A stretch of DNA of 56,739 nucleotides, filler included, from Sluysia triapertura (GCA_046118255.1; 4 parts of 4 records of this genome joined end to end with filler, not necessarily neighbours in it), one strand, 5' to 3'. Shown: positions 790 to 36,880, counted from the whole stretch's first letter. The notes: generated from the sequence alone by a model not told the origin. Translations and numbers: made by a program.

Positions 790-3549
790 AAAAGGAACAA
801 CTTTAATTTATATGGAAATAATTTTTTACAACTAACTTTATCTTAATATTTATATTTATTAATATAATATTTATATATAATTTAAATATTTTAGAATCTA
901 ATAAGAAAGATGATTTTATAAGTTTACAAATAAGAACTAATAAATTATAAACACTAAATTTTTTAATGAATATGTATAATTTAAAAATTTGAACAGTAAA
1001 GCAGATAATAATACTCTTCATCAGCCACGTTCCACTATCTAAAAAGGAACCAAAAGTTAAATTATCATTTACATAAATTATTTACTGTATGATTAACCAT
1101 AGGTCCAACGTTGCCGAATATTTCTGAAGCTGATATTCCTATGTATTTAAGTAAATTTGTAAGACTAGACACATGATCTGTGTTAGATATGTATTTTAAT
1201 TTATGATTCGATAACTGATTAACTGTGTGTGCATAAATACAATTAATTCCAAATTTTGTGTATCTACCATTTATGTCACTACTGTATGGATAAAGTGCTG
1301 TTCTAATACATTGATTCGAACCTAATTAATTATTGAAATAGTTGTGAGACAATGAATTGACAGGGACCGATGGAAAGTACATTAAATTCTTGGATGTATA
1401 GCTAAAATGACGACGATTATTAGGAACAGTATAATGATATACAGGAAGTATTTTCAAATCTTCTTTGTACTCGATACTTAACTGGGATGCATTTATTCGT
1501 AAAACTTTATTTGAAATTAATTTTAGGCTTGTATTCATTGTTCATATAATAAAAGATTTGATGATATCTTTATTTAGTAGATTATCTTCTTTACTTCGTA
1601 TGTCTGCTATAAGCATTCTTTTACGTGGGACGGAGTAATCGTAAACTTTGCCAGCAACTATTGGTGAGAACTTTACACTTTGATTCAGATCAATGACATC
1701 AACATGACTAATTATATCTGCTCTTATTCGAAAATTCAGCCTTCGTTGAATCATCTCAAATTTATCTTTATTATTTTCAAGTAATTCGGTACGAATTAGC
1801 ATCACAAATTCATAAAAGGCATGCTCTTTTAAATTTTCATTTGATCTATTCGCTTTTAAAAACGGATAACATTGAGAAAATATACTGACATAATGATCAA
1901 TGTTTGATCTCACATTATTGTCGAAACTAGTGGTGATAATTCTCAAATTACAAATTTCACGTTTCATAACATTGAATATATTTCCATAGCAATTTATAGG
2001 AGTAATAGTCTGCTTTAAATTTTGATTAAAAAATTCTCTTGAAACATTGACATTGAACATAGGATAGAGCGCAGGTAAATAAATATAAATGATAAATTCA
2101 TCATTGTTTTTTGAAATACTAATATATATACATTTTTGTCGTTCCTGAATATCATGTTCTCGATTATAGTTACATGATTTTAATAAAATAGTTTTGTTTG
2201 ATGTATTGGTAAATTGGAGTTCAATTGTTAAAGTCATTATATTCATATTTGTAGGTTTGATTGTTTGAAATCTCAGATTTGCAGTTGATATTCGTTTTAC
2301 GAAACGTTTGTCTATCATTAAATCTAGATAATCCATAGTATTTAACGGTGTCATTATATATAATTCATCATTTATGTTTTTACGATTTGAAACTAAAGCA
2401 TTATTAGCCATTTTAATTTATTTTTTAATTAAATGGAGTCACTATGTTGTTTTGTAGTAGTGTCCACACTGCAATTGGCTGCCCAATCAAAGCGAGTGTA
2501 AGAAATGACATTAATAATAATTTGACTAAGCAGTCAACAAAATGTTTTACAATAAGGACTGATTAGCTGTTTGGCAACAATGTGCTTAACAATACACGAA
2601 ATAAGTTGTCAACACTAACTACTATCAATAGTGACAATGCTGTACATATGAATTAAAAATGTCACCATTGATAGTAGTAGCTACCTAAATAAATAACTTA
2701 TAATTAAAATTTGTGATAATAATAATAATAACAACAAGAATGTTAGTTTGAAACATATTCTTCCTTTATATTCTTTATTTATTCTCAGTATATTTAGATC
2801 TATTTAAAGTAGTTAAATGTCTTTAGATGTCTAAAGGTTAAATGTTATGGTGTTACCAATTAGTGTTACGTGTTTGGAATGAAATTTTACGGTGTGGTTG
2901 TGATTCTAGTGTTATAAGATAATGCGTAAAACGTTTTAAATGAAATTTAAATGTGTATCAGTGATTTTAAATGTTACCTGATGTAATTATGGTAATGAGT
3001 GGAATGTTTTCAATGAATTTTTGATTGTCGGTTGTTCATTTGGTGGTGAATGTGTTTTTAATATTACGAAGGGTTTTCGATTATTTTGAAGGTGCAGTTG
3101 TACTTCTAATCTTGTAAGATAATGGTTAAGTGTTTTAAATGAATTTTTAAGTACTATTTAATGGTTTTAAATGAAGATAAGTTTGGGTGATGAAAACGTA
3201 TGATTTAAGTATTCTAATATAATATAACTGTTTTTTATGAATTTCTAAATATACATTGATGTTTTAAATGAAAGTAATGTTTGTATTTTAAAAGATTGTG
3301 ATTTGCAAATTTATTGAAATAGAGTAGTTTAATGGATGTAAAGAAGATAAATTATGGCCGATGTTTTGGTACATTCTAAAAGGTAATTGTGTAATGTTAA
3401 AAAGGATATGATTTTGGTTATGTTAGTATTGAACTATGATGAATTGTTGAATGTGAATTGTAGATTCTGAGAGTGAATGTGATTCTGTTGTGTTAAAAGG
3501 AAAAATTTTTTTTAAGATTTGTTAAAAGTAATAGGTTGGTTGCCACAAT
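790..3549 (+). mobile_element. Gene-carrying LTR-like cassette, copy A (left boundary uncertain)
   Basis: Antisense ORFs, ATTGG-N4-CCAAT (2474-2487), 19-bp inverted repeat (2618-2678), (AAT)n near 2717, then a G/T-rich tail. The tail aligns with copy H (2891-2950 vs about 31659-31720; 3354-3392 vs about 31830-31869). Confidence 0.6.
1326..2411 (-). pseudogene. Cassette cargo ORF (289 aa plus in-frame 70 aa after one TGA), UEV/RWD-like motif
   Basis: Intronless ORF 2411-1542 continues in the same frame (1538-1326) after a single TGA. It contains IYIYLPALYP, resembling IYLxxLYP in copies D and E. Confidence 0.55.
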
Positions 3550-3560
3550 CGTATTTCATA

Positions 3561-3834
3561 CAGGGTTTTTCAAATAATTTAATTTAATTTGTCAAATAAT
3601 TTAAGCATTATATTAAAACAATTAATAAATTCATTAAATCCTTCTTAACCTAAACCAAATATGCCGAATATAAAAATAGCAAATGAAATTAGACTAGAAA
3701 TTATAAATTACTGAATAATATATAATCATTATATAATTACAATATATTCTAATTAATTTCTAAAACGATTAAATTATATATGACAAAATGTTTAAATTAT
3801 TTGACAAGAGGATTAAATTATATGAAAAACCCTG
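3561..3834. mobile_element. Tc1/mariner-type MITE
   Basis: Terminal inverted repeats CAGGGTTTTTCA(A/T)ATAATTTAAT, flanked by TA on both sides (3559-60, 3835-36). Confidence 0.88.
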
Positions 3835-4292
3835 TATTACATATAATATATATTAAATCATATATTAATGGATATTGGTTCAGCCATATTATAATTTAGA
3901 TGTTGGTTCATGTCTTCACTTCATGTTTTCTATTTTAGTAATATATTGTATGTTTTATCATTCATACGGTGGTTCTGTTTAATTCACTGCACAATCTCTT
4001 TATTTTACTTAAATATATACATTCTTAAAATAAATATATTCAGTGGATCCCCTTATAACGCGATCCCAATAGCGCGAATTCGTATAATACAATGACAAAA
4101 TTGCTAATATTAGACGAAAACTGGAAAAATTGAAAGCCAAAATTAAAGAAACTGAGATTTCCAAAAAGGCAGGAGTTAGCTAGGATAGTGTCAATGATGA
4201 AGCATGAATTAAGTTGTGGTGATCGTTGAAACCCTGATAGAAGTATGGCATCACGATGACGAGATCCGTAACACGAGCCTTTAAGACTCAGG

Positions 4293-4520
4293 AAATTATT
4301 GGATAACAAAGGAGGGCAAACAAAGTACTGATAGAACAGTTTGTACATATTTGATTTGTAGTAAATTGTGCTACCACATTCTGTATGTTTTGGATCTCAG
4401 TATCTTTATCTATTATTTTACTTTCATCAGAATTTTTTTGGAGAAAGTGGTTATTTTCGAACATTTTACATTTTCCTTGGAAAATGTTGAATTATGTCAT
4501 AATATTTTGACCGCCACTGT
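4293..4520 (+). repeat. Dispersed repeat, second copy at about 23400-23605
   Basis: Near-identical blocks AAATTATTGGATAACAA...TTTGTACATATTTGATTT...TTTTGGATCTCAGTAT occur at both loci. Confidence 0.85.
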
Positions 4521-5044
4521 CAATTTACATAGATATGTAAATATTCTTTCACTAAATCTGCATAAATCTCAGTTGATTATTCAAAAAGTACATGATTGTT
4601 AAATAGTCTTCCTGAATAAAAATGAAAATAATTTACATAAAATAAATAAATTATCCATAAAATGTGAAATTCTAAAATTAAAATTTGATTTTTGAAAAAC
4701 AAATTTTACAATAAATAAATAAATAAATAATATTTTATTTTTATTTTATTTTACATTATAGAAATTTCGATATAAATTTAGTAATTTAGTAATTTAATAT
4801 TGATATAATTCATTAAAAATTTATAATAATACATTTTAATTTAAAATTTGAAGTTCCACTTAAAACGTAGTTTGAATTTGACCTATAATAAATATTTTAT
4901 CAATATAATATCGATAAATTTATCTAATAAATTATTTAGTATTACGTTTAATTTACTTTATTTTGAACAGTGAACAATAATTAGTGTGAAATAAATTAAT
5001 AATTTCTCCATTTTTTTGTTTAAATATTCATTTTAACTGTTTTT

Positions 5045-5458
5045 TATGAACAGGAAAATACAAAAATACAACGCTTTCTTCTATCAAAATACAATCTTTC
5101 CTTAGGTTGTACAAATAATCTTATGAAATCTAGAGACTCCATTTTGAAGTCAATTTTGAATACCAAACAGAAAAGATAAACACATTTACATAGTGGATAT
5201 CAAGTTGATGGTTCCAGAGAATATGAAATATCAGTATGAGTTGTAAAATATTGCAACTCTTAGGCATTAGAATTAGCACAGCACTTAGGAAATCATGATT
5301 TTAAAGCATCAAAAGGTTTCTAAGGGCATAAATCAAATAGTAAGTTTTCTAAAGATCGAATTACTATACTCTTGGAAGTAAATATGTTAGGAGTAGAGTT
5401 AAAGCCTTTAGGCAGATCGGAGAAACCTCGTCTTAAAAATTTGCCAATTACAAAATAT
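5045..5458 (+). mobile_element. pogo/Tigger transposase remnant
   Basis: Fragments translate to ALELAQHLGNHDFKASKGF (CENP-B-type HTH) and SKDRITILLEVNMLGVELKPLGRSEKPRLKNLP (start of the DDE region). Confidence 0.75.
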
Positions 5459-5913
5459 TAGGGCTGTTCCAGGTGCACGGTGCACCTGATTTTATCTTAT
5501 GAACATGATCGATAAATAAATGACAGTATAATAGTCTTAAAAATGATGAATTTTCATTATCCTTTTGAGCGTTTTTTGAAATAAAATTCTAGAATATTTA
5601 CAATAAATTTCTAATTTTGTAATCAATGTTTTATAATACAAAACATGTCTCATTTTGGAATAATAGTTGTTCGTAGGTGTTTCATTATATACTATATACT
5701 ATATAGTATAATATATACATCAGGCTCTACCTTTATTTTATTAAAAAGTCATCGAAATTCATAATATTACGTTGTAATTTCATTTTTGTTTTTATTGTTT
5801 TAAATTTAACTGAATAATGCATTATTATTAAATCATTCAATTGGAGTTTAATTATTGAGTAGGGCTGTTTCCGGTGCATCGGTGCAGGAAAATTCTTCAA
5901 AGTTCCAGCCCTA
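5459..5913. mobile_element. hAT-type MITE inserted into the pogo remnant
   Basis: TAGGGCTG...CAGCCCTA termini. Imperfect 8-bp target duplication CAAAATAT / CAAAACAG. Confidence 0.75.
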
Positions 5914-6326
5914 CAAAACAGAAATATTTTAAAACAATACCAACTATAATTCCATTTAAAATGTGTACTTTAATGATGATATTTCAGAAAAGCTCAGTCA
6001 TTTGAATACTTTGTTGTGAAAAAATTTGATTATTTTTATTTTAAACTTAATAAATAATAAGTAATAATTAATAATTTTAATTAATAAAAATTAATGATAG
6101 TTCGAAGATTTATATGATTTCATATGATTATATTTCACCTCATTTCTAATTCTGTCGAAGTAATTGGAAGTACTCAGAGAATTTCGAGAATAATTTGGTC
6201 TGTAACAATTATAATCTGAAATGTTTCTACCAGAATTTGTTATAATATTAACAATGAATTTTATTAAACTTCATAAAATGGAGCAACGTCTGACCATTGA
6301 ACTATCAGCGTCATCTAACAATTTTA

Positions 6327-6544
6327 TTTTATTATAGTCAATTATACTATAATTATTCTAGGTGGCACATTAGGCCTGTACCCCAACATATCTCACCCAT
6401 TCAATTATGTTTAACCTCAAACATCTTGTAAATCATTTAATTCAACATCAGAAGGGTATTCGATATGTGGGTTCACCAAATGTTAGACTTCATAAAATGA
6501 ACTGACCGGGAATCGAACCAGGAACCTCTTGCTCCACAGCTAAT
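6327..6544 (-). mobile_element. tRNA-derived SINE (5'-truncated head)
   Basis: Minus strand has a B box GGTTCGATTCCCGGTCAG followed by TTTTATGAAGTCTAACA, shared with 32145-32182. The 3' tail is shared with 14638-14690. Confidence 0.8.
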
Positions 6545-7673
6545 TTTGATTTGTAATTTAAAATTTCCTAAAATTGTGACTTGATTATCGAATTTGTTGA
6601 TGTTGTTTCGTTGACAACATCTTAATGTCGTAATTACGAAGTTATTTTGTTTGCTTACACTTTAATTCGTATTTTAACATAATAAAAATATTTAAAAAAA
6701 ATAAAAATTATTCTTAAGATAATAAAACTGAAAAACAAAGTTAAACAGAAAATTATAAAAATTTAATTTAATTTATTAATTTTTAAATAATGATCAAATT
6801 ATGTCTAATATAATTGTGTATCATATTATGTACATCAAGATTTATAAAAATATTTTATTGTGTTTTATTTTTCAAACATTGCTGTCTTTTGCACTTTTTC
6901 CAATGGCAAATATTTGATATTTAATTACTTAAGAATTTAAATATCCAATAATTAATTAACATTTAATTAAAAAATATATATTTTTTAAAATTTTATTTCA
7001 AAATAATTAATCAATTTATTTATTATTATTCAAATTTTATTCGGGTTTCCCTTATTATCACTATTAATTGTTTTTACTGATAATTGACACCGACGACTGT
7101 TTTATTCAAACTATTTTGTATTATCTATTATTATTTCATCATCTGTAGTATATTTAATTAATTATTTCGAATTGTTATTCGGTGGGCTTGATTCCAGAAT
7201 GTATCATTTGAAAAGTTATAAACATTTTTTATTAATTTTATTATTGTAATTTAAAATAAATAAACTCTGGATTTTTAAAAGTCCTGTGGTTTTTCTTGAT
7301 ACTAAACCTACGGCAAAACAAAATTGAACATGGTCCAGTTATAGTAAGCATTTTACAACAAGTAGTTGGCACTACTGTAACTTATAAGTCAATAATATTA
7401 CTTATCTTAGTAATAACTCGTATCCTAACAATTTCTGGAAGGTCTCAATTTATCAAAAATAACAAATACTATTGAACTTTTATTAACAAAAATATTGTAA
7501 AATTAAAATAAGATAATTAAAATTAAAATTTCAATGAAATATTTAATTTAGCCAAGAATTTTAATATTATACGGCTCCTCTCATTACATCGAGGGCAATT
7601 TGGATAGTTAAACTCAGAACTCCCATTTAGAGTTTGTAATTCTTGGCATCGATTTAGGGTGTTATGTTTGATA

Positions 7674-8634
7674 TTATGAAATGAGTTTATAAGTTTGTTG
7701 TACTGACTCTGGTTTGAAGATTTTAGTACAAAATTTAAGTAGTTTCATTTCGATTAATTTATAACAAACTATAACTTCATAAATTTTAAATAAATACTTC
7801 CATAAAGAATTTGTGCTGTTAATGGAATAAGAATAGTTCGTTTCTTTTTTCATGTTAAGACTGTGACTAGCCATCGTAGTGTCAAGTAGAACGATCTGAT
7901 TAATCTCAGAACTAATTATGACTGATTTAACCGTTAAACCTACAACGTTTACCAAAATTAAGATAAGTATGTCATTGGAATTAGAATAATCAAGTTGAAA
8001 ATTGATAATTTTAAAAGGAATATACTTTAGACCATGGTTGAAGGTTTCATCAAACCTTGATTTATACTTACAAATTATTTTTTTATGAAAATTTTTAAAA
8101 AGATACAATAATTCTATCTCTGCTGTTATTACTCTTATATTCTCCTTTTTAGCGTTGGATGAATTAAAAACAAATTTGATCGAAAAATTTTTATTTATTA
8201 TAATAGAACACTTAATTTCAAAAACTAAAAATGTTATATGTACATAATTGTCTTCCACTGATCCATACAGCAAGGGTGTTATCTAAAATGTAAATTAACA
8301 TAAATCTAAAATTAGATCCTACAAGATAAAATAATTGAGTTACAGAGAACTCTTTTGAGAAGTACAATGTAAATAACCATGTTTTAACTGCGGATACTAA
8401 TATAAACTGTAGTTGTACTTTTGTGAACAATTTGCCATCATCATCTGACTGGTTACGAATTTCGAAACTCCAATTTCGTCGCATATATGATGAACGATTG
8501 ACACTAATCCTTCTAACAAAGCTTCGTAGATTCATTGCAACCAAAATTGTTTTGATAATCACTAAAGCAGGGAACCCACCTGACATCTTGTTATGAGTTT
8601 TCACTGCATTTTTTAATAATCTCAACAAATACAT
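7674..8634 (-). pseudogene. Cassette B cargo ORFs 2 and 3 (probably one frameshifted gene)
   Basis: Overlapping ORFs 8634-8218 and 8273-7674. Segments resemble copy E (WSFEIRN vs WRSEIRI; DNYVHITF vs NCFVHVIY; RFDETF vs KLDETH) and copy A (RSFVRRIS vs KRFVKRIS). Confidence 0.5.
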
Positions 8635-8750
8635 AACACAAATTTTATCTAAAACTAACGAACTTCCTGACTTAGTAGCAACGTCAATGATACATAGAAG
8701 AGTTGATCATTTATTAATTTCTCGTTCGCCATGAAGTAATGGTTTAATAA

Positions 8751-9443
8751 CTATAAAAATATTCTTTTCTTGTCTTGCAATAAAATCATCTTCTTTTTAT
8801 GTAGTAATATTTTATAGATCATCAACCAAAGGTGTTTTAACACATCAAAACGTTTTGGGTTCATTCTTCTATTAATATAATTTGATATATGAATCTCTAA
8901 AGATTTATAACATATTGATAAACAACGATTAATTTTGTAAGAAATTCGGCCGAGCTCGACAGAAGTATCAAAATAATTTGAGCAAAGGATCATAAGTTTT
9001 ATAATAAAATGAAAAAGATTATCTTTAATATCACTCATAGTATCACTTTCCAACACTAAATTAATGTAGGGTATCAAACAATTTACAATTAAATCGATTA
9101 CGTTCTTTAGTATTAATGTTTCGACATTTGTTTGTCGTGGTTTATCACGAAAAGTAAGTGGAACTTTATAATTTTGAAACATATAACACCGATTGTAAAC
9201 AATCCATAAACTGTTGTGAGAGTCTTTATTATTATAGTTTTCTAAGTCATCTTTAAATAGATTTATATTATCTAAATGTTTAGTTATAATTTTAGAAGTT
9301 CGATCAATTTTCTGTTGAACTTGTTCATCTGTTAACTTTTTTAGATTTGGTTTAGTTGATGACATTGCATTACCGGATGGCGATACCAAATATACAACAC
9401 CTTGTATAGCGTCAAAATTTTTAATCGACGAAGAATAAAACAT
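8751..9443 (-). CDS. Cassette B cargo ORF 1, 230 aa orphan, likely helical
   Basis: Intact intronless ORF starting about 120 bp from the CCAAT pair; no recognisable family. Confidence 0.5.
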   Translation of the reverse strand: MFYSSSIKNFDAIQGVVYLVSPSGNAMSSTKPNLKKLTDEQVQQKIDRTSKIITKHLDNINLFKDDLENYNNKDSHNSLWIVYNRCYMFQNYKVPLTFRDKPRQTNVETLILKNVIDLIVNCLIPYINLVLESDTMSDIKDNLFHFIIKLMILCSNYFDTSVELGRISYKINRCLSICYKSLEIHISNYINRRMNPKRFDVLKHLWLMIYKILLHKKKMILLQDKKRIFL

Positions 9444-9766
9444 AAAATTCTTTTTGTTAATTTGGCAATAAATAATAAGTGCTCATAACAGTACTACAAT
9501 TTTTGATGTTGATTGTGTAATTATGATTCAACAATTTTTTAGTTGATAAACAATAGATTGTGGTTGGCCATCCAATCACGACTTCAAATTGATGATGTTA
9601 GCTATTTCTCACGTGCTTGGGTGGTGGTTAATAGTACAGTTTTGAGATGATGAACCATCATCAATATTGGCACATTAATAAAAATGGTGAACGGTGTCAA
9701 TATTGATGATGGTGGCAACTAATTTGATTTAGATTAAAATGAATTTATAAAGTAATTTAATGATTG

Positions 9767-9830
<64 letters not shown>

Positions 9831-11039
9831 TATTGTTATTATTATTATTATTATTAAATAAAAATATATTGCATGAATCTTTCTTTCAAAATAAATTATA
9901 TACAATCTTCTCTTTCAGAATCTTCTATTTCTCACATATATAAAATAAAAATGAAAAAATAAAAGCAATTGGTATTTTGTGAAGGAACAGCGGTAACGTG
10001 GTATATTATGCTTAAGTTATCGTTGCTGACTTCCACAAAAGAAATGAATTCTTTAAGACGATATTAAATTTATTTTGAATTTTTGAAGATGAAATTGATT
10101 TGAGCTGCAAGTGAAACAAAGAATGTTAGAATAATTCTTGAGATTTATTTAAAGCTTATAGTTGAAAATAAGGTTTATGCATTGAATATAATAGTTTGAA
10201 AAGCTTGTTAAAAGTTTATAGTTTATTTAATTTGAAAAAAAATTACAAAATAAATCTTTGCGTATTTATGGTGTTGTTATAAAATGGTGATAATGATTAT
10301 GTGTAGATGAAATGGGTTTGACTTAGTGTAATTGATTCGAGGTTGTAACGTAAATATTTTCCATGTTTCAGGTACTTGTTAATGTTGTTAAATGGTGTTG
10401 ATGTATTTGTGATTTATATGTTATAAGTTGTGGTAGTGATTTGGCTTAAGAGAATAACCTATTGGATGAATGTTATGGATTGTTCGGTATTAATTATCAA
10501 AATATAGTATAAAGTGAATGATTGGGGTATTAGACGAATTTTTTGAGATGTGTATGTTGTTGGATTATTATAAATGTCGAATATTGTTTATGATGAATAA
10601 GTTAATGTAATTCGATAGTGTGAAATGTGATTGATTTAGATGTTATGTTTTTTATGAACTAGCTTTTGTGATTTGATAATGTTGAGTGTGATTGTGATTT
10701 AGATGTTGTAAGGTTTTAGTGAATTTTGAATTATGAGTGTTGACAACTACAACGTTTTTATACGTTTTTATTCAGTTGATTTTTATATTAACTTAGATAT
10801 TCCAAGAACCAATGTTGGTCTTGATTATTTTTAAAATATTTAGTATTATTTGAAATTAACGACCATTTTTGCCCATTATTGTTAAGTTAAGGCAAAGAGT
10901 ATATTTTGTACGATTAATCTTAATAATTGTTTGCACGTAATTTTACAGCTACGCCATTAATAAGTCGTATACTGTAAACGGACTCAGAATAATAAATTAT
11001 TTTGTTGTATGTTAGGCTCTTTTATTAAGACAACTCCCA

Positions 11040-13200: not shown

Positions 13201-13203
13201 TAT

Positions 13204-14244
13204 TGTTGGGATTGTCCAGTTAGTGCAAGAAAGTAGATAAAATGGCAAAAGAATTTATAATATATATAATGAAAAATGATATAAAATATCTGAAATACGT
13301 TAATATAAACATAATTAAATATTCCTAGAGCAAAATAATGAACAAAACATGTTTATAATCATTTTGAAACCGAAGAACACCTTGGAGTTCCAAAGACCTT
13401 TGTAAGGTATTGAGACCATTATGAAGATTTCAATAAGGTTTGGAAAGATGTCTTGAAGTATGAAGATACCTTTGAACTTCTGAACCTTGGAATCACTTAG
13501 ACCTTGATGATATTTTGGAACATTTGAAGACTTTTGAGGCATTAATAAACTTTTGAAACCTTCAAGTAGCTTTGTAAAATCTTTGGAATCTTTAAAATGT
13601 GCAAGAATTAAAATCATGGTTATTAATATTAAAGATAAATTTGAGACATTAATAATTAAATAAAAAATTTAAAAAAGGAATCAGAGTGGTGAAGGTGAAA
13701 ACATATTATATAACAACTTTTTAACTATAACAAAACCTTTAAACTTAGAATAAAATAAGTTAAAATAATTATTTAATTAATTAAAATCTTAATTAATTTA
13801 AGAAAAATTACGTTTGTGTGAATAACTTTTGAATGAGGGGTGCTATGATAAAATTGTAGCTGTACTTGTATGTGTATTAAAGAGATCTTCCAATGAAGAT
13901 AAGGTCTGACCGAGTTCATGCAAAGAAAGCCTCCATATTGAACAAAGTCGAATTTTAATTAATTTTTAATTTAAAATGCAAAAATTTTTCATTTTTAGAA
14001 TGATAAAAAAATGATGAGTTGGGTATGGAGTGGTTGCTATCAAGTTGGAGAATCCGAAAATTGTTGTTTGGGGATGAGAACCTTAAACATTGAGTGTGAG
14101 GAATTGACATTGTCTGGTAACTGGTTGTATATTTTTGAGACATAAACGGTATATAACTTATTATCACTGTGGATTATGTATAGATTATTATTATATCTCA
14201 ATGAAATATTCATCCTGGCTTCCAAATATTATTATTTATAATAC
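13204..14244 (+). mobile_element. Solo LTR, family L1
   Basis: Begins TGTTGGGATTGTCCA and ends ...TATAATACA. Collinear with 27067-28292 (GGAATCAGAGxGGTGAAGGTGAAAACAT; TGACCGAGTTCATGCAA). Confidence 0.75.
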
Positions 14245-14637
14245 ATATTCAGGGCTTTTTTAATGCAAATATTTGTAGATTATTGTCATGATTTTGAATT
14301 CTCCTCTTGCCTTTTATTAGGCGCTAGAGTGTTAATATAGGATTATAATTCAACGAATAAAATGAATTCGAAGGAATACAGGAATCAGCTCTTAAATTGG
14401 CAAGCGATAACTGTCCTTATCATGCATCCAATGAAAATAAAGAACATTTCTTATCATCTATGATAATCAGTGACGGAAAATGTTTTCAGATGCTTTGTAT
14501 ACAAGTGCACATACGGAAAGTATCAGGATCTTCGAAGCCATCTTTACAAGCTAAAAGATACATCGAAAAAGTAATGTTAGACTTCATAAAATGGACTTCT
14601 CGCTTCACACATGTGCAGTTCGATGCTCTGACCACTG

Positions 14638-27066: not shown

Positions 27067-28292
27067 TGTTAGGATTGTCCAACTGTCGATTAGGAGATTA
27101 GCAAGAGATATATAGAATCACAAAATGAAGGAACAGTTGATTGAAATTATAAACATTGTTGGAAAAAGAATCAAAAATAAAAACATCTATAATAATTATA
27201 ACAGCTAAAGAATACCTTGACATTCCAAAGACCTATATAAGGTGTCGAAGCTTGAAGAGGACTTAAAAACCTTTGAAAGAATTAGAATATCTTTGAGATC
27301 ATCTGAGACCTTATTAACCTTTAAGTATTCTTGAAACCTTGATAAGCATCTAAGATTTTTCAGTAATTTTATAAATTATAAATTATACCTTTAGAATATT
27401 TGAGAAATAAAAACAATGTTTAAAGTAATAAAGATAAGTTTAGTATAGTAATAATCAACATGAAGAAGTAGGCAAGGAATCAGAGAGGTGAAGGTGAAAA
27501 CATCTAGAGCCTCCTGAATGCCTTATAAACTACTAAATAACTTTAGGACCTTATTAAAACCTTTAAACATAGAATAGATTAAATCTAAAAATAGATTAAT
27601 TAATTAAAATTTTAATTAACTTAATTAAGAAAAAATACGATTTTGTGAATAACTTTTGAATGTAGAAAGCTATGTTGAATTTGAAACTGTATATGTATTT
27701 GTTTTAAAACGACCTTCCGATGAAGATATGGTTTGACCGAGTTCATGCAAGGAAAACCTTAATATTGAGAAAAGTCAATTTTTAATTGTAGAATGTTGAA
27801 ACTTTTTACATTTCGAATGATGAAATATAATGAATTAAACGTGAGATGATTGCTATGAAAGAGGTGAATTTACAGGTGCGTTCGAAATGTTTGTAGAATG
27901 GTTTGTTTGAGAATAAGAACCTTAAAATATTTTTCATTAAAAAATTAGGTGTGAAAAACCGAAAATTAATCAAATCCTAAAAAATGAAATTAAATTCGTT
28001 ATTTTTGTGTATGTTAATAATATTGTTGATTGCTATTTTAATGTGAGAAATAATTTAAGTAAAAATAGATTAAGTAGAGTAAAAGGAAATGATGGCCGCT
28101 AATAAATCAGATTTCTATGTTTGGTACCTAATGATGTTTGACAGACCGTACCATGTAATTGTCAAAGTTGTTATAGTCGGTCTGATTCTCAAAGAGGTTT
28201 GGATGATTTGTGTGAGAGTGTTTGGTTATGAGAATAGGAATTGATTGGATGATCAAAGTGTATAAAATAAAAATTTATATATTTTTACAACA
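27067..28292 (+). mobile_element. Solo LTR, family L1 (about 1.2 kb)
   Basis: TGTTAGGATTGTCCA...TTTTACAACA termini (TGTT/AACA). Purine-rich 5' half and G/T-rich 3' half. No clean target duplication. Confidence 0.78.
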
Positions 28293-28379
28293 CAATAACA
28301 CTGTCATACATTCACACAATCCTACCGGTATTGAAGATCCATGCAGATGGTAATCTTTTTATTTATTTTTACTTTATTG

Positions 28380-29001
28380 TTTTATTATTTTAAATTAAAT
28401 AAAATAAATAAGTTTTTGGGGAGTATCTTAAAAATAATCTTAAGAATAACCAGTTTATTTTATTCTGAATTAATTATTTTATTTTTATTAATTTTAATTT
28501 AACTTTATGGGAGACACTTTACCCAGTTTGCTTTAAAATATTCTAAGTTAATAATTTTTTTAGCTAATTGTTAGATAATTTTGTGGGAGACACACTGTTC
28601 AATTTATTTTTAAAATATTTATTCAGCATTACTATTTTAAACTTTTTGGATATTGAAATTTTTTTTGTGTTTGTTGCGTCACTCCTGATTTTTTCATGTA
28701 GACTGTTATATTCTTGATACTATTATAAACGTTATTGTTATTCATGTAGTTTTTGTCATTTGATGTTGTTTAGTAAAGACTTATAACAGTAATTTGTATT
28801 TGATTTTTTTTTGTAATCATTAAATTATTTAATTGTTTATTTTATTTTAAAAACTTAATCTTTGGGTTGAATAAATAACATCATCAAAATAAGAGAAATT
28901 GTGATAATTTTATATTGAATTTAGTGATTAATTATTGAGATTTTATTAAATGGATTAATCGATATTAATTTGCTATTATTATTAAGTACAAAGACGCAAT
29001 A
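28380..29001 (-). mobile_element. Inverted 5' fragment (J) of an H-type element
   Basis: Reverse complement starts TATTGCGTCTTT and aligns to 29586-30140 (e.g. TGTTGCGTCACTCCT at 28672 vs AGGAGTGGCGCAACA at about 29904). Confidence 0.75.
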
Positions 29002-29585: not shown

Positions 29586-31365
29586 TGTTGCGTCTTTTAA
29601 AATTACTAGTTATGAAAACTCAATATTAGCTTAAAAAGAATCTTAATAATTTAAATAGTGACTATATCAAATATAGTTTTGCAGCAATTCTCTTACTTAA
29701 TATTAATAACTATTCCCCCAAAATTAAGCTCTTAAAAATCAAATAAAAAATAAGGCAATAATTTACTATTAAACAAAAATCAAATTAGAATTTATTGTTA
29801 TTAGTATGACTTTCCACCAAATAATAACAAAATAACTAAAATGACAAAATTAACAATGGCGTTTATAATAATATTAAGAATACTAGAATATAACTGAAAA
29901 ACTAGGAGTGGCGCAACAATCACTAACAATATCAATATCTAGAAAGTTAATAATAATTATGCTACTTAAGTATTTTTCGTAAACGTAACTGAGAGTAATC
30001 ACGATTATAACAAAAATTTTTGGGCAGAGATCCTTTCTAAAACCTAACAGTAATATTTAAAGTAGAAATATTTAATGTTTCGATAAAATAAATTGCGTAG
30101 GATATTTCCCACAAAACTAGTTTAAAAATGGCTGAAAATAAAATCAAACAACTTACAATAAAATTAGCACAATATTTAACTTATATTAAAATTATCTCTG
30201 CCATATCGGGAACACTCACCATTCTGCATTATTCCAAATAAGCATAAACCATGTTTGTAATATTTGAATTGATGAGCATAAGGTTGTAAATTTTTAGGCG
30301 AAGATATGTTGTCACTATAGTAACGTTTGACATTGTCAGTCTTTGTTTTTACTTTTACCATGTTTTTTACTAATGATCTAATTTTACTTGTGATCACATA
30401 CGAATCGACATCAATAGGGATATGTATACATTTATCTATTTTCATCACGATATACGTTGACGTATTAAGATCGAATCATCTTATTTGAAAATCATGAGAT
30501 ATTTCACTGAATTTTCTTGTTTTGCGTTTGTTTGTCTACTAATTTAACAATGATTTGAAGGCAAAGAGCGAATTTCGATAAGTTTCGGGAATTTCGAATC
30601 TATAATTGATTCTTTAAAGAATTCTAATATTTTAAATTATAATTGATCGAACTGTACGATTAACTCTAATTTTAACGAAATATCATCAAGAAATTCACTT
30701 TTAGATAGCATAGTTTCGATAAACAATTACTTTAAGTGAAAATAGATTCAAAATTGATATAAATTCTTAGAACAATAATTCAGATTTTTGTCACCTTTAA
30801 AATTCTGATAACAAATAATTATCTCGTTTTATACTTTACACTTTTAAGTTTTATTTACTAATAATGATCTTTTCAGTCACTCGTAAGTGTATTGTTTTAT
30901 TTTTACGTCACTTTTAAAATTCTAGTGTATATAATTATAGGAATCGATCAAATGTGCGTTCAATTTATTTTTAACAGTGACTAGTTATAGTATGATGATT
31001 GGTCGTGATTGGATAGCTAGTCAGGTAATCAATATACAAAGAAATTCTCATTCCGCACACTACGCCGCAAATACAAATAATGAAGAACAATTATGTCGAT
31101 GATTGGCGTCCAATTGGATGAGACGTCCAATCAATTGAAGTAAACGACGCTTAGTAACTGTCACCAGTTGACGGTTTGATTTAGTTTAATGCACTGACAA
31201 CTGTGAAGCCAGACTATTTACATTAATCAATAAAAAGATAATAATGTAGTAATAATAATGATAGTAATGAATAATATTAACTAATAATAATTATAATAAT
31301 TGAATTGATAATAAATAATATTAATACTAATAAAGTAGTAATAATGATATATAAAATACAAATAA

Positions 31366-31398
<33 letters not shown>

Positions 31399-31872
31399 TA
31401 ATAATAATAATAATGAAAATTAAAAATAATAAGATAAATACATAAACTTCTTTTATAATCGGTCTTCACGTCATGCAGTCTTATAATTCTTTGAAAATAA
31501 AATTATTTTAATATTTTTAAATAAAGTTATTTTAATTGCAATGTCTAAAATGGTTTAAAAGTGTTAAGTTAATATTTAATATTAGAGACTGAATGTTAAA
31601 AGATTGTAAGCTTGAAATGTTTTTGGATTGATTTTAAGATGAGTGTTCGAAGGTTTAAGGTGTAATTGTGATTTTAATATTATTAGATAATGCGTAAAAT
31701 GTTTTAGCTGAGTTTTAAAATGTAGATTAATAGTTTTGAAAATAATTATGATTTTGTCGTTAACAGATTGTGAATTTAAAATGTTTTGAGATATGAAAAA
31801 TGATTTTAGTGAATTTGAAAGAAATGAAATGTAGCAATGGTTTTGATAGATTCTAAAAGGTAGTTGTGTCTT
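29586..31872 (+). mobile_element. Cassette copy H (3'-truncated) with decayed antisense ORF 30176-30448
   Basis: Starts TGTTGCGTC. ATTGG-N3-CCAAT at 31102-31114, hairpin 31161-31206, (AAT)-rich tract, and a tail homologous to copy A. Confidence 0.62.
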
Positions 31873-31995
31873 TTAATACTTTTATTTTCCCAAATTATTA
31901 AAATCAAAACTCAGTAACTAAATAAACTCAAAACCTCAGTATATTTGTTATATTATCAAAACTACAATCAGAGTATATAAATTATAACAATACGA

Positions 31996-32095
31996 NNNNN
32001 NNNNNNNNNNNNNNNNNNNNNNNNNNNNNNNNNNNNNNNTTAATTAATTAANNNNNNNNNNNNNNNNNNNNNNNNNNNNNNNNNNNNNNNNNNNN
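31996..32095. other. Artificial contig linker
   Basis: N44-TTAATTAATTAA-N44. Confidence 0.97.
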
Positions 32096-32185
32096 GCTGA
32101 TAGCTCAGTGGTAGAGCAGTCGGACTGCGCAGACAATGGTCCCGGGTTCGATCCCCGGTCAGTCCCTTTTACGAAGTCTAACAAT
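32096..32185 (+). mobile_element. tRNA-derived SINE head (Cys-like tRNA ancestry possible)
   Basis: A box TAGCTCAGTGGTAGAGC and B box GGTTCGATCC are present, but the anticodon arm pairs poorly. It is followed by the SINE body TTTTACGAAGTCTAACA also seen at 6481-6502 (minus). Confidence 0.75.
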
Positions 32186-33159
32186 TTTATGCAATAAATT
32201 ATTTTATTATAAAAGTGTAACAAATTATTTTAACATATTTTTATACTAAATATTTATTTTTAAATGTTATTTATACTAAGTAAATCAATTTTGCTTTACT
32301 ACGCCATCTTGGATTTTAATAAAATCAATAATTGGCATTGACAATTTAAGTCTCATAATTAGTAAATCATCGGAATTAGTAAATCAAGAAACACAATTCA
32401 CAAATATGAAGTCACAAGTCAAAGACATGTTATTCGATTCGAGTCCATGATACGCGTAAAACTTAAAATTGAGTTAGTACCATTTTAAAATTTTTCTAAA
32501 ACTGATGATTTATTATTAGAGTGAAACTTCTAATAATTTAATTGTTTATTGATATTATTACACTGAATTGTTGATACCAATTACATTTGTATGTTACATG
32601 TTTCTTATATTTGCAAGTTTATTTAAATAAAGTTTACGTTTATATGTTTGATATATCTCTACGTATTTGTTGTATTTTTAAATTTGTACATTTCCTAAGT
32701 TTGTTATATTTTTACGTTTCATTAAATAAAAATTGTTTTGTTCATTGAGATATCGATAAGTTTTAAAGTAAAAGAAAAGGCATAAATAAATGTTGCTTAC
32801 TGTCGTATTTACAGCTACGCCCTCATTGAGTAGTAAACCACATACTGTAAACGAACCCAGAATATTAAAATTATTTTGATAGGTTAAGGTAAAAGTAAAT
32901 AGAACAAACACAGAAAAATTTGTCGCCCAAATTGGGACCAACGACATTAAGCATCACATACGATTAAGAAATAGTTGTTATTTAAGTTATTTAAGTGAGC
33001 TTCTAAGTAATCATAATTAAGTCTCTTAAGTAGACACATTTTGATTGTGTAAGCTATAGAAGCTATAAGATTAAGTGAGTTATTAATTTTATATTGAAGT
33101 TATTTAATTATTAAGCATAGATAATAAAGAAATTAGAAGTGGTCTTATAAGACATTATT

Positions 33160-33560
33160 CTGCAGAAAATATTACCATTAAAAAGAAGAAGACGATTAAA
33201 AATGAATATAGATATGGTATTAGCCACAGATCTTGCAAAGCATGTCTCTTTATTAGCTGGCTTGAAAACAATGCTTGAGACCAAATCAATATCTGAGTTT
33301 AAACAGTTACAAAGATCGAATATGATATTAAAAGTCTTGTCCGTTACGCCGATATCAGTAACCCGACCAAAGAATTGTTTCTGTATGAAAAAAGGATTGA
33401 TCGTATTACTCAAGAATTTTTTCTTCAAGGTGATAAAGAAAGAGAACTAAAAATAGAAATTACAGCTTTATGTGACAAAGAAACAGCCGTGATACTAGCT
33501 TCTCAGATATCATTCATTAGGAAACATTTATTGAACTCGTTTATGACGAATCAATTGATT
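33160..33560 (+). pseudogene. cAMP phosphodiesterase (PDE4-like) catalytic-domain fragment, frameshifted
   Basis: IDMVLATDLAKHVSLLAGLKTMLETK, then a frameshift to LVRYADISNPTKELFLYEKRIDRITQEFFLQGDKERELKIEITALCDK...SQISFI. Confidence 0.85.
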
Positions 33561-33720
33561 TTGCAGAAATATTAGCAAAAAATTAGGAAAGGTATGACGA
33601 GTTTGAAAAGCAAGATGAAAAAGAAAAACAAATAAAAGAAAGCTGTTTAAACAAAACTGTTGCGACTTCAATTTCTGTTTCAGTGAAATCAGTGACCTGA
33701 AATAATTTAACTTTACGCTA

Positions 33721-35951
33721 TGTTTGATATGTATATTTGTATATTTCAATATTTCAATAACAGATTATAAATTGAAATAAATGATTAATTGGATTAATAT
33801 TTACATCTTATTGAAACTAAAATGATTAATTAGTTAATTACTTTATGAGCTTTTAATATTTACATAAACTAAATTTGTAATATTCAAAATTAAATTGACC
33901 AAATTCACAAATCTACATTTAATTTACAATATTTACAATCCCTTTATCTCGAAGCTGCAATATCCTTTCAGTTACTATTTAATCCGACAACCCTAGCATA
34001 ATGCTGAGTTCTCCAAACAGCGCCTGGTGTTGTATAATGTATTTAATAATATTTAATAATATTTTATGAACAGTTTTAAAGGTGATTCGACATATAAATC
34101 TGAAGTTTTGGCTTGAACTGAAGGCTTATTATTATTATGCAGCTTAAAGTTTGAATTTATTATAGAAAGAGTATACTCAGGATATAAACTTGTTAGATAA
34201 ATACATGTTTCGAGATTTAGTTCACGTTTATAAAGATTATTCATGGTCACGTATAAAATTAGACTTAAAGCCACGAATGTGTTTCATCAAGTTTCATTAA
34301 ATGTTCAAACTTATTTGTTTTAAAGATTTTATAAAATTTTATAAAGTTTCGTCGTTATCGTAAAACTTAGTTTAAACCTATACATCTTGTTTTGGGATAA
34401 ATTCAACAACTTAGTATTAAAAGAGTAAATTACATGTACAAAACAATTATTATAACATTTTATTACATAACTAAAAAATTGGATTGCAAATTTAATTTTT
34501 AATAACACTTTAATCGTATTATTTATTTCTGAAATTCTGATCTCACTTCTCCATTGTTCTTGTTGCATTTGCATGGTCCAGTTGTATTGCTTATCAACTA
34601 AATAATAATCAAATAAATATATATATTTAAAACTAAAAAAGTCATGAAAAAAATCAAGGAAATAAGGAAACTTTATGTTAAAATTTACTTCGTTGTTGAG
34701 TGGCTTCATGTCTTCATAATTGTGTAACAGAGCTGCATTAAATGAATGAGGAACACGGTACGATTCTATACACTGGCAACCATAGTTTTTGAACAATGTT
34801 TGACTTTTATAATCCATAGGAATTTTAATCTTTTCGTTATTAAACATTGAGTTTATTGCATACTGAACGATTATTTTAAACAGTTTTTCTGAAAAGAGCA
34901 TGTTATTTGTGTCATCTTTATTAAAATTTTCGTTAGTATCAGCTGAAAAACTAAAATTGCGTGAATATTCACTTTTATCTATAATCAAAGGTGTATCGTT
35001 GTTCGCTAAAACTTTCAATGTATATGTCATATCAGCATATTCCATATCAAACATTGATTTGTTTGGAAAATTGATTAGTTTCACTTTTGATTTTGATAAC
35101 GTTAATGAGCTCATTTGAATTTGCATTTCTTTTCGAACACTATCATTAATTGATGAACTGCTAATTAAGGTATAATTTGAAAATACATCTAATAGATAAT
35201 ACAAATCATATTGTAATTCATTTTTTTGTAAACGGATACTAAATGGGTGCGATCTAATATGTTTCATTGCAAGTCGTTTATTTGCTTTAAGAACAGTATT
35301 GTTAATCACAAAACAAACTTTAGGAGAATCTAAAATGTCTCGTTTGATTATTCGTTTTAAATCTCTATGGATAAAAATATCATACTGGTTGATCGTCGAA
35401 TCCATACATGTACGTTAGATATATACATCAAATTTGCATCGTTAGTTGGTATTAATGCTAAAATTCCATTTGTTTGACCAATGATTTTGATTAGATTCCA
35501 CATATTGATCAGTGACAGTATGTAGCTTATGTCTTTCCTTTTTAATCCCAATATCAATTACGCAGAGTTGGTTTATAATATTTTTAGATTGTCTCTAAAA
35601 TTTTTAATTGTCTGGAAAAACTTTTTTACTGACCACAAAATTTTTAATTGAGCCTCGTCTGGAATTTTAATTGTCTACTAAATTTTTATTGTCTAGAAAA
35701 TTTTTAATTCTGACAATTTTTAATAGTATCAACGAATTTTATTGGTCATCCAATCGAGAGCGTTAAAATTGTTAAATGCAGAATTTAGTCTCGATTTTAA
35801 TTGAAAAATGATGAGACAAAACTGGTTAGCGACAGCCATCAATGTTGACAGTCTAATGAAAAATGTACATAGACTGTCATCGCTGGTGATGGCAGTAACT
35901 ATATTAATCGGCTTTAATGAAAATTTTTATAATTTTGTGTTAAGGGAATTA

Positions 35952-36008
<57 letters not shown>

Positions 36009-36880
36009 GTAATAATAATAATATTGTTATTACTATTATTAATAATTGAAATTAAAATACCTGAATATCTTTAAACTTATACACGAGCTTTATCTGTCTG
36101 TTTCTTTAATTTCTACATATGAATAAAAGGAAATGAAACTGGTAACATGTTGTGAAGGAACAACGGCAACGAGGTAGGATACGTCTGCGTTTCGTTGTTG
36201 CTTCTTGCTGAGATGGTGAACTGTTTAAAGCTTGATTGTTTATCTTTAAATGAAATGGAAATGAATTGAATAATAATTGAAAAGAAGAATATTAGGAAAG
36301 ACTTATTGAAATTTATTAAAAGTTTGTAATTAAGATAAGATTTGATTCTTGAATATGATAGTTTGAGATGTTTAAAGTTATTTTAGTTTTAAAAGACAAT
36401 TACAAAATAAATCTCAATATATTATAATGTTATTACTAATAAATGTTAACGATGAATATGTATATATGAATTAGATTTAGGTTGGTGGAGTTGGGTAAAG
36501 ATTTTAATGTAAAAGATTTATATTTCTGAGGTGCTTGTTAAGGTTTTTGAATGGTGTTATTGCGTTTATGATTTGTGTATTTTATTGTGATTGTGGTTTG
36601 TTTGTTGGAATATCTTATGAGTGAATGTTGTGGATTATTCGAGACTGAATGTCGGAGTTTGTTGTGCTGTGGATGGTTAAAAGTGTTAGTTGAATTGTTG
36701 ATGTTTAGAAGTTAATAAGATGTTATAAATATGGAGTGTTGTTTATGGTGTTTTTGTTGGTATATTTCGATAGTAAAAAGTGTGATTGTTTTGAAAATTG
36801 AATTTTGTTGAAATTTAATTTGTGAATATTAAAAATGATATTTTGATAAATTTTAAATTATGAGTGTTGACCACTACAAT
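33721..36880 (+). mobile_element. Gene-carrying LTR-like cassette, copy E
   Basis: Possible TGTTTGATATGT start. Antisense ORFs, ATTGG-N4-CCAAT (35741-35754), hairpin (35835-35893), (AAT)n, AATAAA, hairpin (36151-36208). The tail is collinear with B and ends TTATGAGTGTTGACCACTACAAT. Confidence 0.7.
33980..35557 (-). pseudogene. Cassette E cargo gene (about 500 codons, frameshifted), C-terminal UEV-like motif
   Basis: ORFs 35557-35357, 35405-34329 and 34274-34053 are consecutive. A 10-bp duplication TTTATAAAAT near 34330 causes one frameshift. NLETCIYLTSLYP matches NLELQIYLEDLYP of copy D. Confidence 0.6.

Follow-up and report, generated by a model that had tools for sequence, protein, structure and literature searches.

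Decayed modular LTR-like cassettes with antisense open reading frames in Sluysia triapertura

Seven decayed cassettes of 2-3.5 kb (A, B, C, D, E, G, and H) share a modular plan in Sluysia triapertura DNA, in which the open reading frames (ORFs) are directed away from a non-coding tail in 7/7 cases. The observations comprise the modular order, ORFs of coding character with a common direction, right ends that are both sharp and conserved, two short flanking duplications, and a UEV-type motif that recurs across three tail groups. We give about an even chance to the reading that these cassettes are old solo long terminal repeats (LTRs), 2-3.4 kb in length, from several related Gypsy-like families with antisense accessory genes in U3. 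The window, i.e., the whole stretch of DNA analysed (56,739 nucleotides, filler included), consists of four contigs joined by N spacers, and all copy comparisons were made within it. The genome is AT-rich. According to the interval list, cassettes and their pieces occupy 22,667 of the 56,475 called bases (approximately 40% of the stretch). Approximately half of the words sampled from 560-9740 were present in one public run, and no RNA dataset was among the matches listed. A preliminary description had placed seven copies and fragments in all four contigs; contig 4 contributes only a 77-bp X-type terminus (43143-43219, minus strand), recognized by sequence comparison and cut by the contig start.

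Cassette plan and tail groups

Cassette A (767-3547, plus strand) is the best defined copy. It has TG...CA ends and is flanked by the 5-bp duplication ATCGT (762-766 and 3548-3552). Its payload ORF (1542-2411, minus strand) is followed by a palindromic ATTGG-N4-CCAAT box found by motif search (2474-2487), a hairpin region (2560-2685, plus strand; z -3.7), and a C-poor, G/T-rich tail (2750-3547, plus strand). Cassette B (7361-10751, plus strand) contains a payload spread over different frames (7523-9482, minus strand; ORFs of 243, 162, 202, and 73 aa), a CCAAT box with one mismatch at 9563 and a hairpin with a 22-bp stem (9563-9730, plus strand; z -4.4), and a tail (9870-10751, plus strand). 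In cassette E (33721-36878, plus strand), an uninterrupted orphan ORF of 358 aa (34329-35405, minus strand) and a second ORF piece of 76 aa (34053-34283, minus strand) are accompanied by a palindromic CCAAT box and a hairpin (35741-35910, plus strand; z -2.9). The left end of E is uncertain and adjoins a phosphodiesterase gene remnant.

The other four copies are less well delimited. Cassettes C (11040-13203) and G (17420-19314) lie in reverse orientation with undefined ends; an ORF scan located short broken ORFs of C at 12093-12652 (plus strand) and a G ORF of 121 aa at 18631-18996 (plus strand). Cassette D (22141-25064, plus strand) has approximate ends, and a separate terminus at 26930-26993 resembles its final 60 bp. 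A nested repeat lies within D at 23395-23583. Cassette H (29586-31995, plus strand) has an undefined right end, as the contig ends at 31995, and carries a box at 31102. In C, G, and H, the candidate payload ORFs are short and interrupted. The geometry previously claimed for C and D, with ORFs pointing away from the tail, was confirmed. Of the order proposed for A, B, E, G, and H, the ORF direction and tail position held throughout, and the box and hairpin were recovered in A, B, E, and H and not in G.

Exactly three palindromic ATTGG-N3/4-CCAAT boxes are present in the window (A 2474, H 31102, and E 35741); among 50 shuffles, 45 had none and 5 had one. The palindromic box is absent from G, C, and D. 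Another N4 site with one mismatch lies inside the E ORF (34478). The H hairpin reached z -2.9 only when the box region was included (-0.5 without it). No significant hairpin was present in C, in D, or in G, where z was -2.0 and -1.6. TATAWAW was absent between the box and the AAT tract in A, B, and E. The background density of AATAAA across the stretch is 3.2 per kb, which the poly(A) signals of the cassettes do not exceed. Of the succession described earlier as typical of LTRs (CCAAT, TATA, hairpin, and GT-rich tail), the box and hairpin exceed chance and the tail is present in A, B, E, and H, and TATA was not found in place in A, B, and E. The (AAT)n tract does not mark cassettes, with only 4 of 11 plus-strand runs of at least five units located inside them. 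An Rfam search returned 4 matches at E up to 1, of which only a tRNA-like one exceeded its gathering score; microRNA matches on the B hairpin were below threshold and were rejected. Among the 21 promoter pairs, none rose convincingly above shuffles, and the best (B-E, z 2.9) stayed under the shuffle maximum.

C-poor, G/T-rich tails are present where they had been described. The tails of A, B, and E contain approximately 6% C, 20% G, and 41% T, and the skew is confined to the tail, falling off at the right boundary of all three. The B and E tails are homologous (67-69% identity in an alignment of approximately 700-870 bp, with z 62 relative to 60 dinucleotide shuffles), with 93% identity in the last 30 bp vs 67% in the body. 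Homology was also found between the A and H tails (z 16) and between the H and G tails (z 8.6). The C-D similarity is weak (z 4.0; score 55 vs a shuffle maximum of 52). Among the 21 pairs formed by the seven tails, cross-group pairs and the direct A-G comparison remained at shuffle level. The tails thus form three groups that cannot be aligned with one another: B/E, A/H/G, and a weakly related C/D pair. With 4/21 pairs significant, the proposal of a single family did not survive. As a U5, a tail of this size (0.5-0.9 kb) would be long, which counts against the LTR reading.

These groups also bear on the suggestion that the cassettes are integrated segments of a multipartite virus with a common region. 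The joining of differing intronless ORFs to a hairpin-bearing non-coding module is what such segments would look like, but three unalignable tails leave no common region, and neither a replication nor a capsid protein was found. Viral relatives were also lacking: a search of viral contigs with two queries gave 0/104 confirmed candidates and 0/3 pattern matches, and PHROGs gave 1 weak match among 11 proteins, located outside the cassettes. We regard this alternative, for which no support emerged, as very improbable.

Payload ORFs and their domains

Stop-to-stop ORFs of at least 200 aa numbered 5 in contigs 1-3 vs 0 in each of 20 shuffles. Four of the five lie in cassettes (A, 291 aa; B, 243 and 202 aa; E, 361 aa). 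Most payload ORFs are interrupted by stops and frameshifts and are seemingly intronless. The A payload encodes an orphan protein of 289 aa, followed after stops by in-frame pieces of 71 and 86 aa on the minus strand.

The payload of D (22940-23242, minus strand) carries a Tsg101/Vps23-type UEV domain in a broken ORF (PF05743, E 1.8e-08, 34.7 bits against a cut-off of 27), and 7/7 matches in the PDB were TSG101 (E 0.019-0.029). No homologue of the D UEV was found among 194 longer proteins. The motif IYLxxLYP occurs 3 times in the six frames of the window, always in antisense payloads (A at 2084, E at 34202, and D), and 0 times in 100 shuffles; it was picked after being seen. Pairwise comparison related the second ORF piece of E to the D UEV at E 6e-04 and the A piece at E only 0.062. 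Searched alone, the A and E pieces did not match the Pfam UEV, and a profile of the three pieces found nothing in the PDB. A UEV-type motif is common to A, D, and E, which span the three tail groups. A weak Unkempt-type CCCH finger (PF25427) was detected in the last A piece (1180-1325, E 0.0034) and in a 99-aa ORF of H (30176-30475, minus strand; E 0.0011), and a CCCH profile search returned only Unkempt, at E 4. Inspection by eye suggested zinc-ribbon remnants (B, C, and D) and further CCCH remnants (G and E), none of which was supported by Pfam. A freely variable payload, as previously described, is not what we observed. Because the UEV-type motif recurs in A, D, and E and the weak CCCH finger in A and H, the payload looks like a fast-evolving accessory gene set.

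Other searches were largely negative. The A ORF had 0 homologues among 372 candidates, its best ESM Atlas match was 0.82 (lead level only), and E had no usable match there. The single match of the E ORF among 1.84 billion representatives, a bacterial MBG-repeat protein, was rejected; its score is a sum over repeats, with a best pairwise value of 29.6 bits. Exact look-up in a protein collection recovered 0/10 ORFs of the stretch, and the B payload ORFs had no Pfam match of weight. Single-sequence structure models were uninformative (mean pLDDT 36.6 for A and 33.4 for E).

Such orphans could be ordinary fast-evolving host genes that share a common host promoter motif and have unrelated repeats inserted upstream. 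CCAAT boxes are common promoter elements, payload DNA is non-alignable between copies, and the tail groups are unrelated. Even for a host protocadherin, none of the matches listed exceeds 31% identity, so that orphan status is expected in this genome. However, the non-coding tails of B and E are more alike than the adjoining ORFs, the reverse of ordinary paralogues. The geometry is fixed in 7/7 cassettes, and a duplication surrounds A. In addition, most of the ORFs are decaying and seemingly intronless, whereas three tiny introns interrupt the CSN6-like gene of the host. There is accordingly a slim chance that the payloads are plain host genes.

Ends, duplications, and related elements

The left ends of the seven cassettes are mutually non-homologous. 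A sharp start had been described for H and its relatives, and this was borne out: H and a fragment at 19315-19507 (plus strand) both begin with TGTTGCGTC (z 17.6 over the first 100 bp). The next 90 bp of the fragment match the X body, and it ends at a contig edge. This start is common only to H, the fragment, and the end at 29001, which belongs to element Y (27067-29001, minus strand; 1935 bp), an element with an H-type start, an X-type tail, and no long ORF. H shares approximately 350 bp with 28612-28949 (z 51). H, Y, and the fragment thus combine the same start with different payloads and tails; the G/C skew of the Y tail is opposite to that of H despite the common start. Y has a degenerate CCAAT box near 28248. 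To its left lies a D-type terminus in reverse orientation (26928-27023, plus strand), which starts TGTTGAG (z 9.0). A simple insertion of Y into a D-type element is unsupported, because no continuation of that terminus was recovered in the flank on the right side of Y (z -1.1). Further X-type pieces are a truncated repeat starting TGTTGGGATTG (13204-14090, plus strand) and, identified by sequence comparison, a body fragment (16100-16650, minus strand) and a terminus cut by a contig start (19608-19769, minus strand).

At the right ends, the homology of B and E stops sharply at CTACA (10751 and 36878), in agreement with the earlier observation. The left end of B is a candidate only, GTAGTTGG, the inverse of the right-end motif. 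Of the 10 GTAGT(T/G)G sites in the stretch, 4 lie at ends or candidate ends of cassettes: two on the plus strand, at 771 (left end of A) and 7362 (candidate left end of B), and two on the minus strand, one at the right end of B and one at that of E. A metagenome scan with the B/E end motif gave 0 matches. Of the TG...CA termini attributed to the cassettes, both ends are present in A, only the CA end in B and E, and only TG in H. The left end of A reads TGG rather than TGT.

Duplications were found in 2/8 elements and differ in length (A, 5 bp; Y, 4 bp). That of A lies where the tail skew ends, and a duplication plus TG arises with a chance of 0.022 when the left region is shuffled 5000 times. 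That of Y, TAAA, was found at two ends set independently by homology, which read TGTTAG and GCAATA on the plus strand. The right end of Y is TA rather than CA. Duplications of the anticipated 4-6 bp were seen for A and Y, and no convincing one was found for B, C, D, E, G, or H. Candidates in G (AATAT), B (ACTAC, 7376/10745), and D (a 13-mer reached by 32/400 shuffles) were dismissed; ACTAC belongs to the element, because the same letters occur in E.

Terminal direct repeats were sought in A, B, D, and Y. End-to-end scores of 15-27 lay within the shuffle range, and self-BLAST revealed none. Scores for terminal inverted repeats in the same elements were 17-23 vs null means of 20-21. This lack of long inverted or direct terminal repeats fits a lone LTR. 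In a primer-site test, TGG was present within 3 nt after 1/12 ends examined, about the chance rate; solo LTRs are not expected to retain a primer site or a polypurine tract. TRIM/LARD elements were rejected, since terminal direct repeats were not found at both ends of A, B, D, and Y. A Helitron makes no duplication and has a 5' TC and a 3' hairpin plus CTRR end. This assignment was rejected on the A duplication, the TG...CA ends, and the mid-element position of the hairpins.

Non-autonomous DNA transposons of the Ginger or Pack type with short TG...CA ends and captured genes are quite unlikely. The TG...CA ends, the 4-5 bp duplications, the short motif that is inverted between the two ends of B, and the host-derived UEV domain would suit them. 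TIR DNA transposons are bounded by inverted repeats at least tens of bases long, but in A, B, D, and Y no terminal inverted repeat rose above the shuffles. A one-sided promoter-and-tail plan is also unexpected for Ginger- or Pack-type elements, and the payloads lack the 31-35 nt introns of a nearby host gene.

The cassettes could also be truncated pieces of larger LTR elements. Their antisense ORFs would then be internal, outside an adjoining ordinary LTR of 1.1-1.3 kb comprising box, hairpin, and tail. In the plant Retand family, antisense ORFs characteristically occupy the interval from pol to the 3' LTR, according to the accessible part of the source (PMC11963269). The left ends of B, C, E, and G are undefined, left ends are non-alignable, and homology between copies is restricted to the tail side, as truncation would predict. 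Against it, the ORFs of A are enclosed by the duplication, the sharp start of H, Y, and the 19315 fragment lies on the far side of the payload, and no pol remnant adjoins any payload. We judge truncation unlikely.

The solo-LTR reading, in sum, draws on the TG...CA ends of A, the duplications of A and Y, the B/E terminus, the end motif GTAGT(T/G)G, the box and hairpins, the absence of long terminal repeats, the antisense IYLxxLYP motif, and a decayed LTR-element internal region in contig 4. Against it stand the six elements with no convincing duplication, left ends that do not align, TATA and poly(A) signals not above background, the opposite skew of the Y tail, the differing duplication lengths, and the division of the copies into three old, diverged groups; no pair of similar copies around gag/pol was seen within the stretch.

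A candidate partner, known systems, and significance

Contig 4 contains the internal region of a decayed retroelement (49051-55592, minus strand). It comprises two gag-like pieces (55592-55038 and 53637-53200; PF03732, E 0.0024), remnants of a chuvirus-type fusion glycoprotein in profile order (approximately 51090-49780; PF24664, E 6.8e-06 and 1.2e-18), and a retropepsin (49413-49051; PF00077, E 1.6e-05). The fusion glycoprotein lies between gag and protease, all on the minus strand, as in Burro-type elements. A search of contig 4 for remnants of reverse transcriptase (RT) or integrase found neither, and a dUTPase-like stretch noted by eye (48606-48818) was rejected for want of Pfam or PDB support. 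Comparison of the tails with contig 4 yielded only low-complexity or chance-level matches. The remnant is a candidate partner of the cassettes.

The accessible part of the report on Burro, a giant Gypsy-like planarian element, describes a fusion glycoprotein of negative-strand-virus type that lies, as in contig 4, between gag and protease, and a giant polyprotein with RT, RNase H, integrase, and a dUTPase-like domain (PMC6431247). Burro also carries ubiquitination-related accessory domains; unlike the cassettes, it has them in the internal polyprotein or an upstream ORF, and that part of the report mentions no ORFs in its LTRs (PMC6431247). Vertebrate retroviral LTRs are summarized, in the portion of the source available, as TG-CA ends, CCAAT, an R stem-loop, and a T-rich region, and ORFs, some antisense, occur within long LTRs (MMTV sag, lentiviral nef, and HML2/3/4/8) (PMC2664473). 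The likeness extends to a U3 ORF in a long LTR and a T-rich 3' part. By contrast, the cassettes measure 2-3.4 kb, lie in an invertebrate-like genome, and carry several ORFs of up to 358 aa, a captured UEV, and apparently swapped payloads and tails, and they are only putative LTRs. In plants, Retand and Grande Gypsy elements resemble the cassettes in having antisense accessory ORFs beside the 3' LTR, but as far as the source excerpt goes these are internal and mostly TRP28, whereas the ORFs of A lie inside a duplication-bounded unit (PMC11963269). Ogre is similar in its multi-kb LTRs (1.9-6.5 kb) and differs, on the same limited source, in being a plant element with internal extra ORFs (PMC6431247). 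Bdelloid LTR retrotransposons with diverse ORF3 and LTR-mediated retrocopies document that extra ORFs are captured and exchanged by LTR elements in animals and that solo LTRs accumulate through LTR-LTR recombination (PMC5408684, PMC5131818). In the sections of these two sources at hand, the captured ORFs lie between LTRs, unlike those inside one LTR-like unit here (PMC5408684, PMC5131818). In the literature covered, where subscription papers are thinly represented, the ingredients are described separately and the cassette combination was not found.

Under the solo-LTR reading, the left end would be an integrase-type TG end, as in A, followed by a long U3 with antisense accessory genes. The palindromic CCAAT promoter, of the NF-Y type, may fire both ways, with the hairpin near the start of R and then a long T/G-rich R-U5/leader that would close with the CA end. 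Integrase would have made the duplications, and recombination between two LTRs would have removed the internal part. U3 starts, payloads, and tails were probably swapped between families, and the autonomous partner could be an envelope-bearing element like the contig 4 remnant. More speculatively, the UEV module might derive from host Tsg101 and recruit or decoy the ESCRT/ubiquitin budding machinery, and the CCCH finger might bind RNA. The fuller proposal is possible but doubtful: the multi-kb LTRs of envelope-bearing Gypsy-like elements would act as expression cassettes with a bidirectional CCAAT promoter and exchangeable antisense UEV/CCCH accessory genes, each insertion or solo LTR depositing a promoter-equipped gene.

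A retroelement-borne Tsg101-type UEV would be a new twist on the use of host budding machinery by such elements. If the LTR reading is true, protein-coding LTR cargo would be the dominant design here rather than a rarity of a few vertebrate retroviruses, and backward-facing genes in LTRs would be an unusual route for spreading accessory genes. Solo-LTR formation, usually a gene deletion, would then leave genes and a promoter behind, which would provide a testable source of many orphan genes in fast-evolving animals.

Shared plan and coding content of the cassettes

The cassettes, seven LTR-like repeat units designated A to E, G, and H, represent a real, abundant, and unusual repeat design. The preliminary description was partly confirmed as an observation: the common plan, in which ORFs are directed away from a C-poor, G/T-rich tail, is real. 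Five ORFs of at least 200 aa were found in contigs 1-3 versus none in each of 20 shuffles, and four of the five lie within cassettes. The long ORFs show a first-position purine excess resembling that of a host gene. The long cassette ORFs are coding, and the payloads (the antisense ORFs) are mostly in decay. The longest ORFs, of A (289 aa) and E (358 aa), are orphans with no homologue found, and structure models of both were uninformative. It is improbable that the ORFs are simply host orphan genes with repeats upstream.

The palindromic CCAAT box, ATTGG-N3/4-CCAAT, occurs at three sites in the window, all inside cassettes (A, E, and H); B has a one-mismatch version. The proposed placement of box and hairpin between ORFs and tail held for A, B, E, and H. 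Hairpins were significant against chance in A, B, and E; that of H reached significance only once the box region was included, and none was significant in G, C, D, or Y (an ORF-less relative of H). Another proposed mark was not upheld: (AAT)n is a common microsatellite, with 4/11 runs in cassettes. No TATA occupied the expected position in any of A, B, and E. AATAAA was at background level, with no enrichment. Occurrence in all four contigs was also overstated, contig 4 having only a 77-bp terminus.

A UEV domain of the Tsg101 type (Pfam E 1.8e-08) is encoded by a broken ORF in the D payload, and its PDB matches, all weak, were to TSG101 in seven of seven cases. The motif IYLxxLYP, picked from this domain after inspection, was present at three sites in six frames of the window, in the payloads of A, D, and E (0/100 shuffles), and thus ties the three tail groups together. 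Pairwise comparison of the UEV-type pieces yielded E 6e-04 for D-E and E 0.062 for D-A; the A and E pieces have no Pfam UEV match of their own. An Unkempt-type CCCH zinc finger was matched weakly in A (E 0.0034) and H (E 0.0011), both under the cut-off.

Tails, termini, and target duplications

The cassettes had been proposed to form a single family, and this was not sustained. Tail similarity was significant in just 4 of 21 pairs: B-E (z 62), A-H (16), H-G (8.6), and C-D (4.0, weak). The left ends of the seven cassettes showed no mutual alignment, and payload DNA did not align between copies.

Cassette A extends from 767 to 3547, starts with TG, finishes with CA, and has ATCGT on either flank; such a duplication together with a TG start arose in 2.2% of 5000 trials shuffling the left region. 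B and E end at CTACA, with 93% identity in the last 30 bp vs 67% in the body. GTAGT(T/G)G lies on the minus strand at the right ends of B and E and on the plus strand close to the left boundaries of A and of B (4/10 sites), that of B being a candidate. TGG followed 1 of 12 ends examined. Around B, C, D, E, G, and H, no convincing target duplication could be identified, and terminal inverted or direct repeats were absent from A, B, D, and Y. Non-autonomous DNA elements with TG...CA ends, as in A, are an unlikely explanation.

Y (27067-29001), absent from the earlier copy list, has TAAA on both flanks and no long ORF. Its H-type start (about 350 bp, z 51) is fused to a different tail, X, which was located in five further places (13204, 16100-16650, 19418-19507, 19769, and 43219). 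In the fragment at 19315, the first 100 bp of H run straight into the X body. Since both join the start of H to X sequence, starts, payloads, and tails look exchangeable.

A 190-bp interspersed repeat was noted at 4289-4463 and 23395-23583, the latter copy nested within cassette D. A short repeat with a weak hairpin is common to 10942-11004 and 32808-32878 (77%), one copy being at the C tail end.

Host genome and contig 4 retroelement

The window, composed of four contigs and N spacers, has a G+C content of ~25%. A protocadherin ectodomain is a single 552-aa ORF (38310-39968) with at most 31% identity to the 120 best listed relatives, and a CSN6-like JAB/MPN gene (20700-21734) is interrupted by three introns whose lengths were read as 31, 35, and 32 nt. 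Judged from this divergence and these tiny introns, the source is a fast-evolving animal, perhaps an orthonectid or flatworm relative. A frameshifted cyclic-nucleotide phosphodiesterase piece (Pfam PF00233) lies at 33151-33575, immediately left of cassette E. Next to an STT3 oligosaccharyltransferase fragment (43388-43882, minus strand; E 8.6e-05, below cut-off) are an X-type terminus and a short tandem repeat. A tRNA-like sequence (32094-32186; related partial copy, 6478-6526) is probably a tRNA-derived SINE. A 230-bp repeat is common to 14104-14322 and 56494-56719; by eye it resembles a LINE-type 3' fragment.

A decayed retroelement, the candidate partner, occupies 49051-55592 (minus strand). 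It retains two gag-like pieces and a retropepsin, together with what is left of a chuvirus-type fusion glycoprotein, whose PF24664 matches (E 6.8e-06 and 1.2e-18) follow the order of the profile. The glycoprotein separates gag from protease, an order that planarian Burro elements are reported to share (PMC6431247). RT or integrase was not detected in the remnant, and its flanks lack cassette sequence; what the remnant establishes is therefore limited to the presence of envelope-bearing LTR-type elements in this genome. A possible dUTPase-like reading at 48606-48818 was not confirmed. A T/G-rich, C-poor tract (53700-54040, minus strand; C 0.06, T 0.47) precedes one of the gag pieces, upstream of it on the sense strand of gag; its composition is like that of cassette tails, yet it is not alignable to them. 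Orphan ORFs of 216, 104, and 98 aa (46099-47235, minus strand) follow the protease remnant downstream; their surroundings contain neither a cassette tail nor a box.

Proposed interpretation as LTRs

Assessed by the criteria of TRIM/LARD elements, TIR transposons, Helitrons, and multipartite viruses, the cassettes fitted none, and virus segments are a very unlikely source. The cassettes behave like ORF-bearing LTRs and are putative solo LTRs, seen in the window as unpaired units; the LTR interpretation is partly supported. Vertebrate retroviruses have long LTRs with internal ORFs, some antisense (PMC2664473); LTRs, including solo LTRs, serve as two-way promoters (PMC10186651); Ogre LTRs measure 1.9-6.5 kb and Burro elements carry accessory domains (PMC6431247); bdelloid elements capture ORFs (PMC5408684); and retrocopies form via LTRs (PMC5131818). 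Retand antisense ORFs are internal (PMC11963269). A similar arrangement here, with internal antisense ORFs beside an ordinary LTR, is a less probable reading.

The available portions of PMC13524379, PMC13644364, PMC11410931, and bioRxiv 10.64898/2026.02.11.705288 contributed nothing on such a design. The literature search found no report of CCCH fingers encoded by extra ORFs of LTR elements, or of ORFs within LTRs of Gypsy elements. The full combination was not described in the literature searched; the primary Burro paper, supplements, and repeat databases might hold a description. The ingredients are known separately, and their combination in one LTR-like unit appears new within that literature.

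The most likely reading, to which we give an even chance, is that the cassettes are old solo LTRs of Gypsy-like elements, with antisense accessory genes in U3 and a two-way CCAAT promoter. The layout, the coding character of the ORFs, the sharp termini, and the duplications at A and Y are demonstrated; that the units are LTRs, that they are transcribed in both directions, that modules were swapped, and that the contig 4 element is their partner are inferences. The U3 of each LTR would hold the accessory genes on the opposite strand, the promoter would fire both ways and drive them, and recombination between the two LTRs of an element would leave the solo LTR. Speculatively, the accessory proteins might act in ESCRT-dependent budding and RNA binding.
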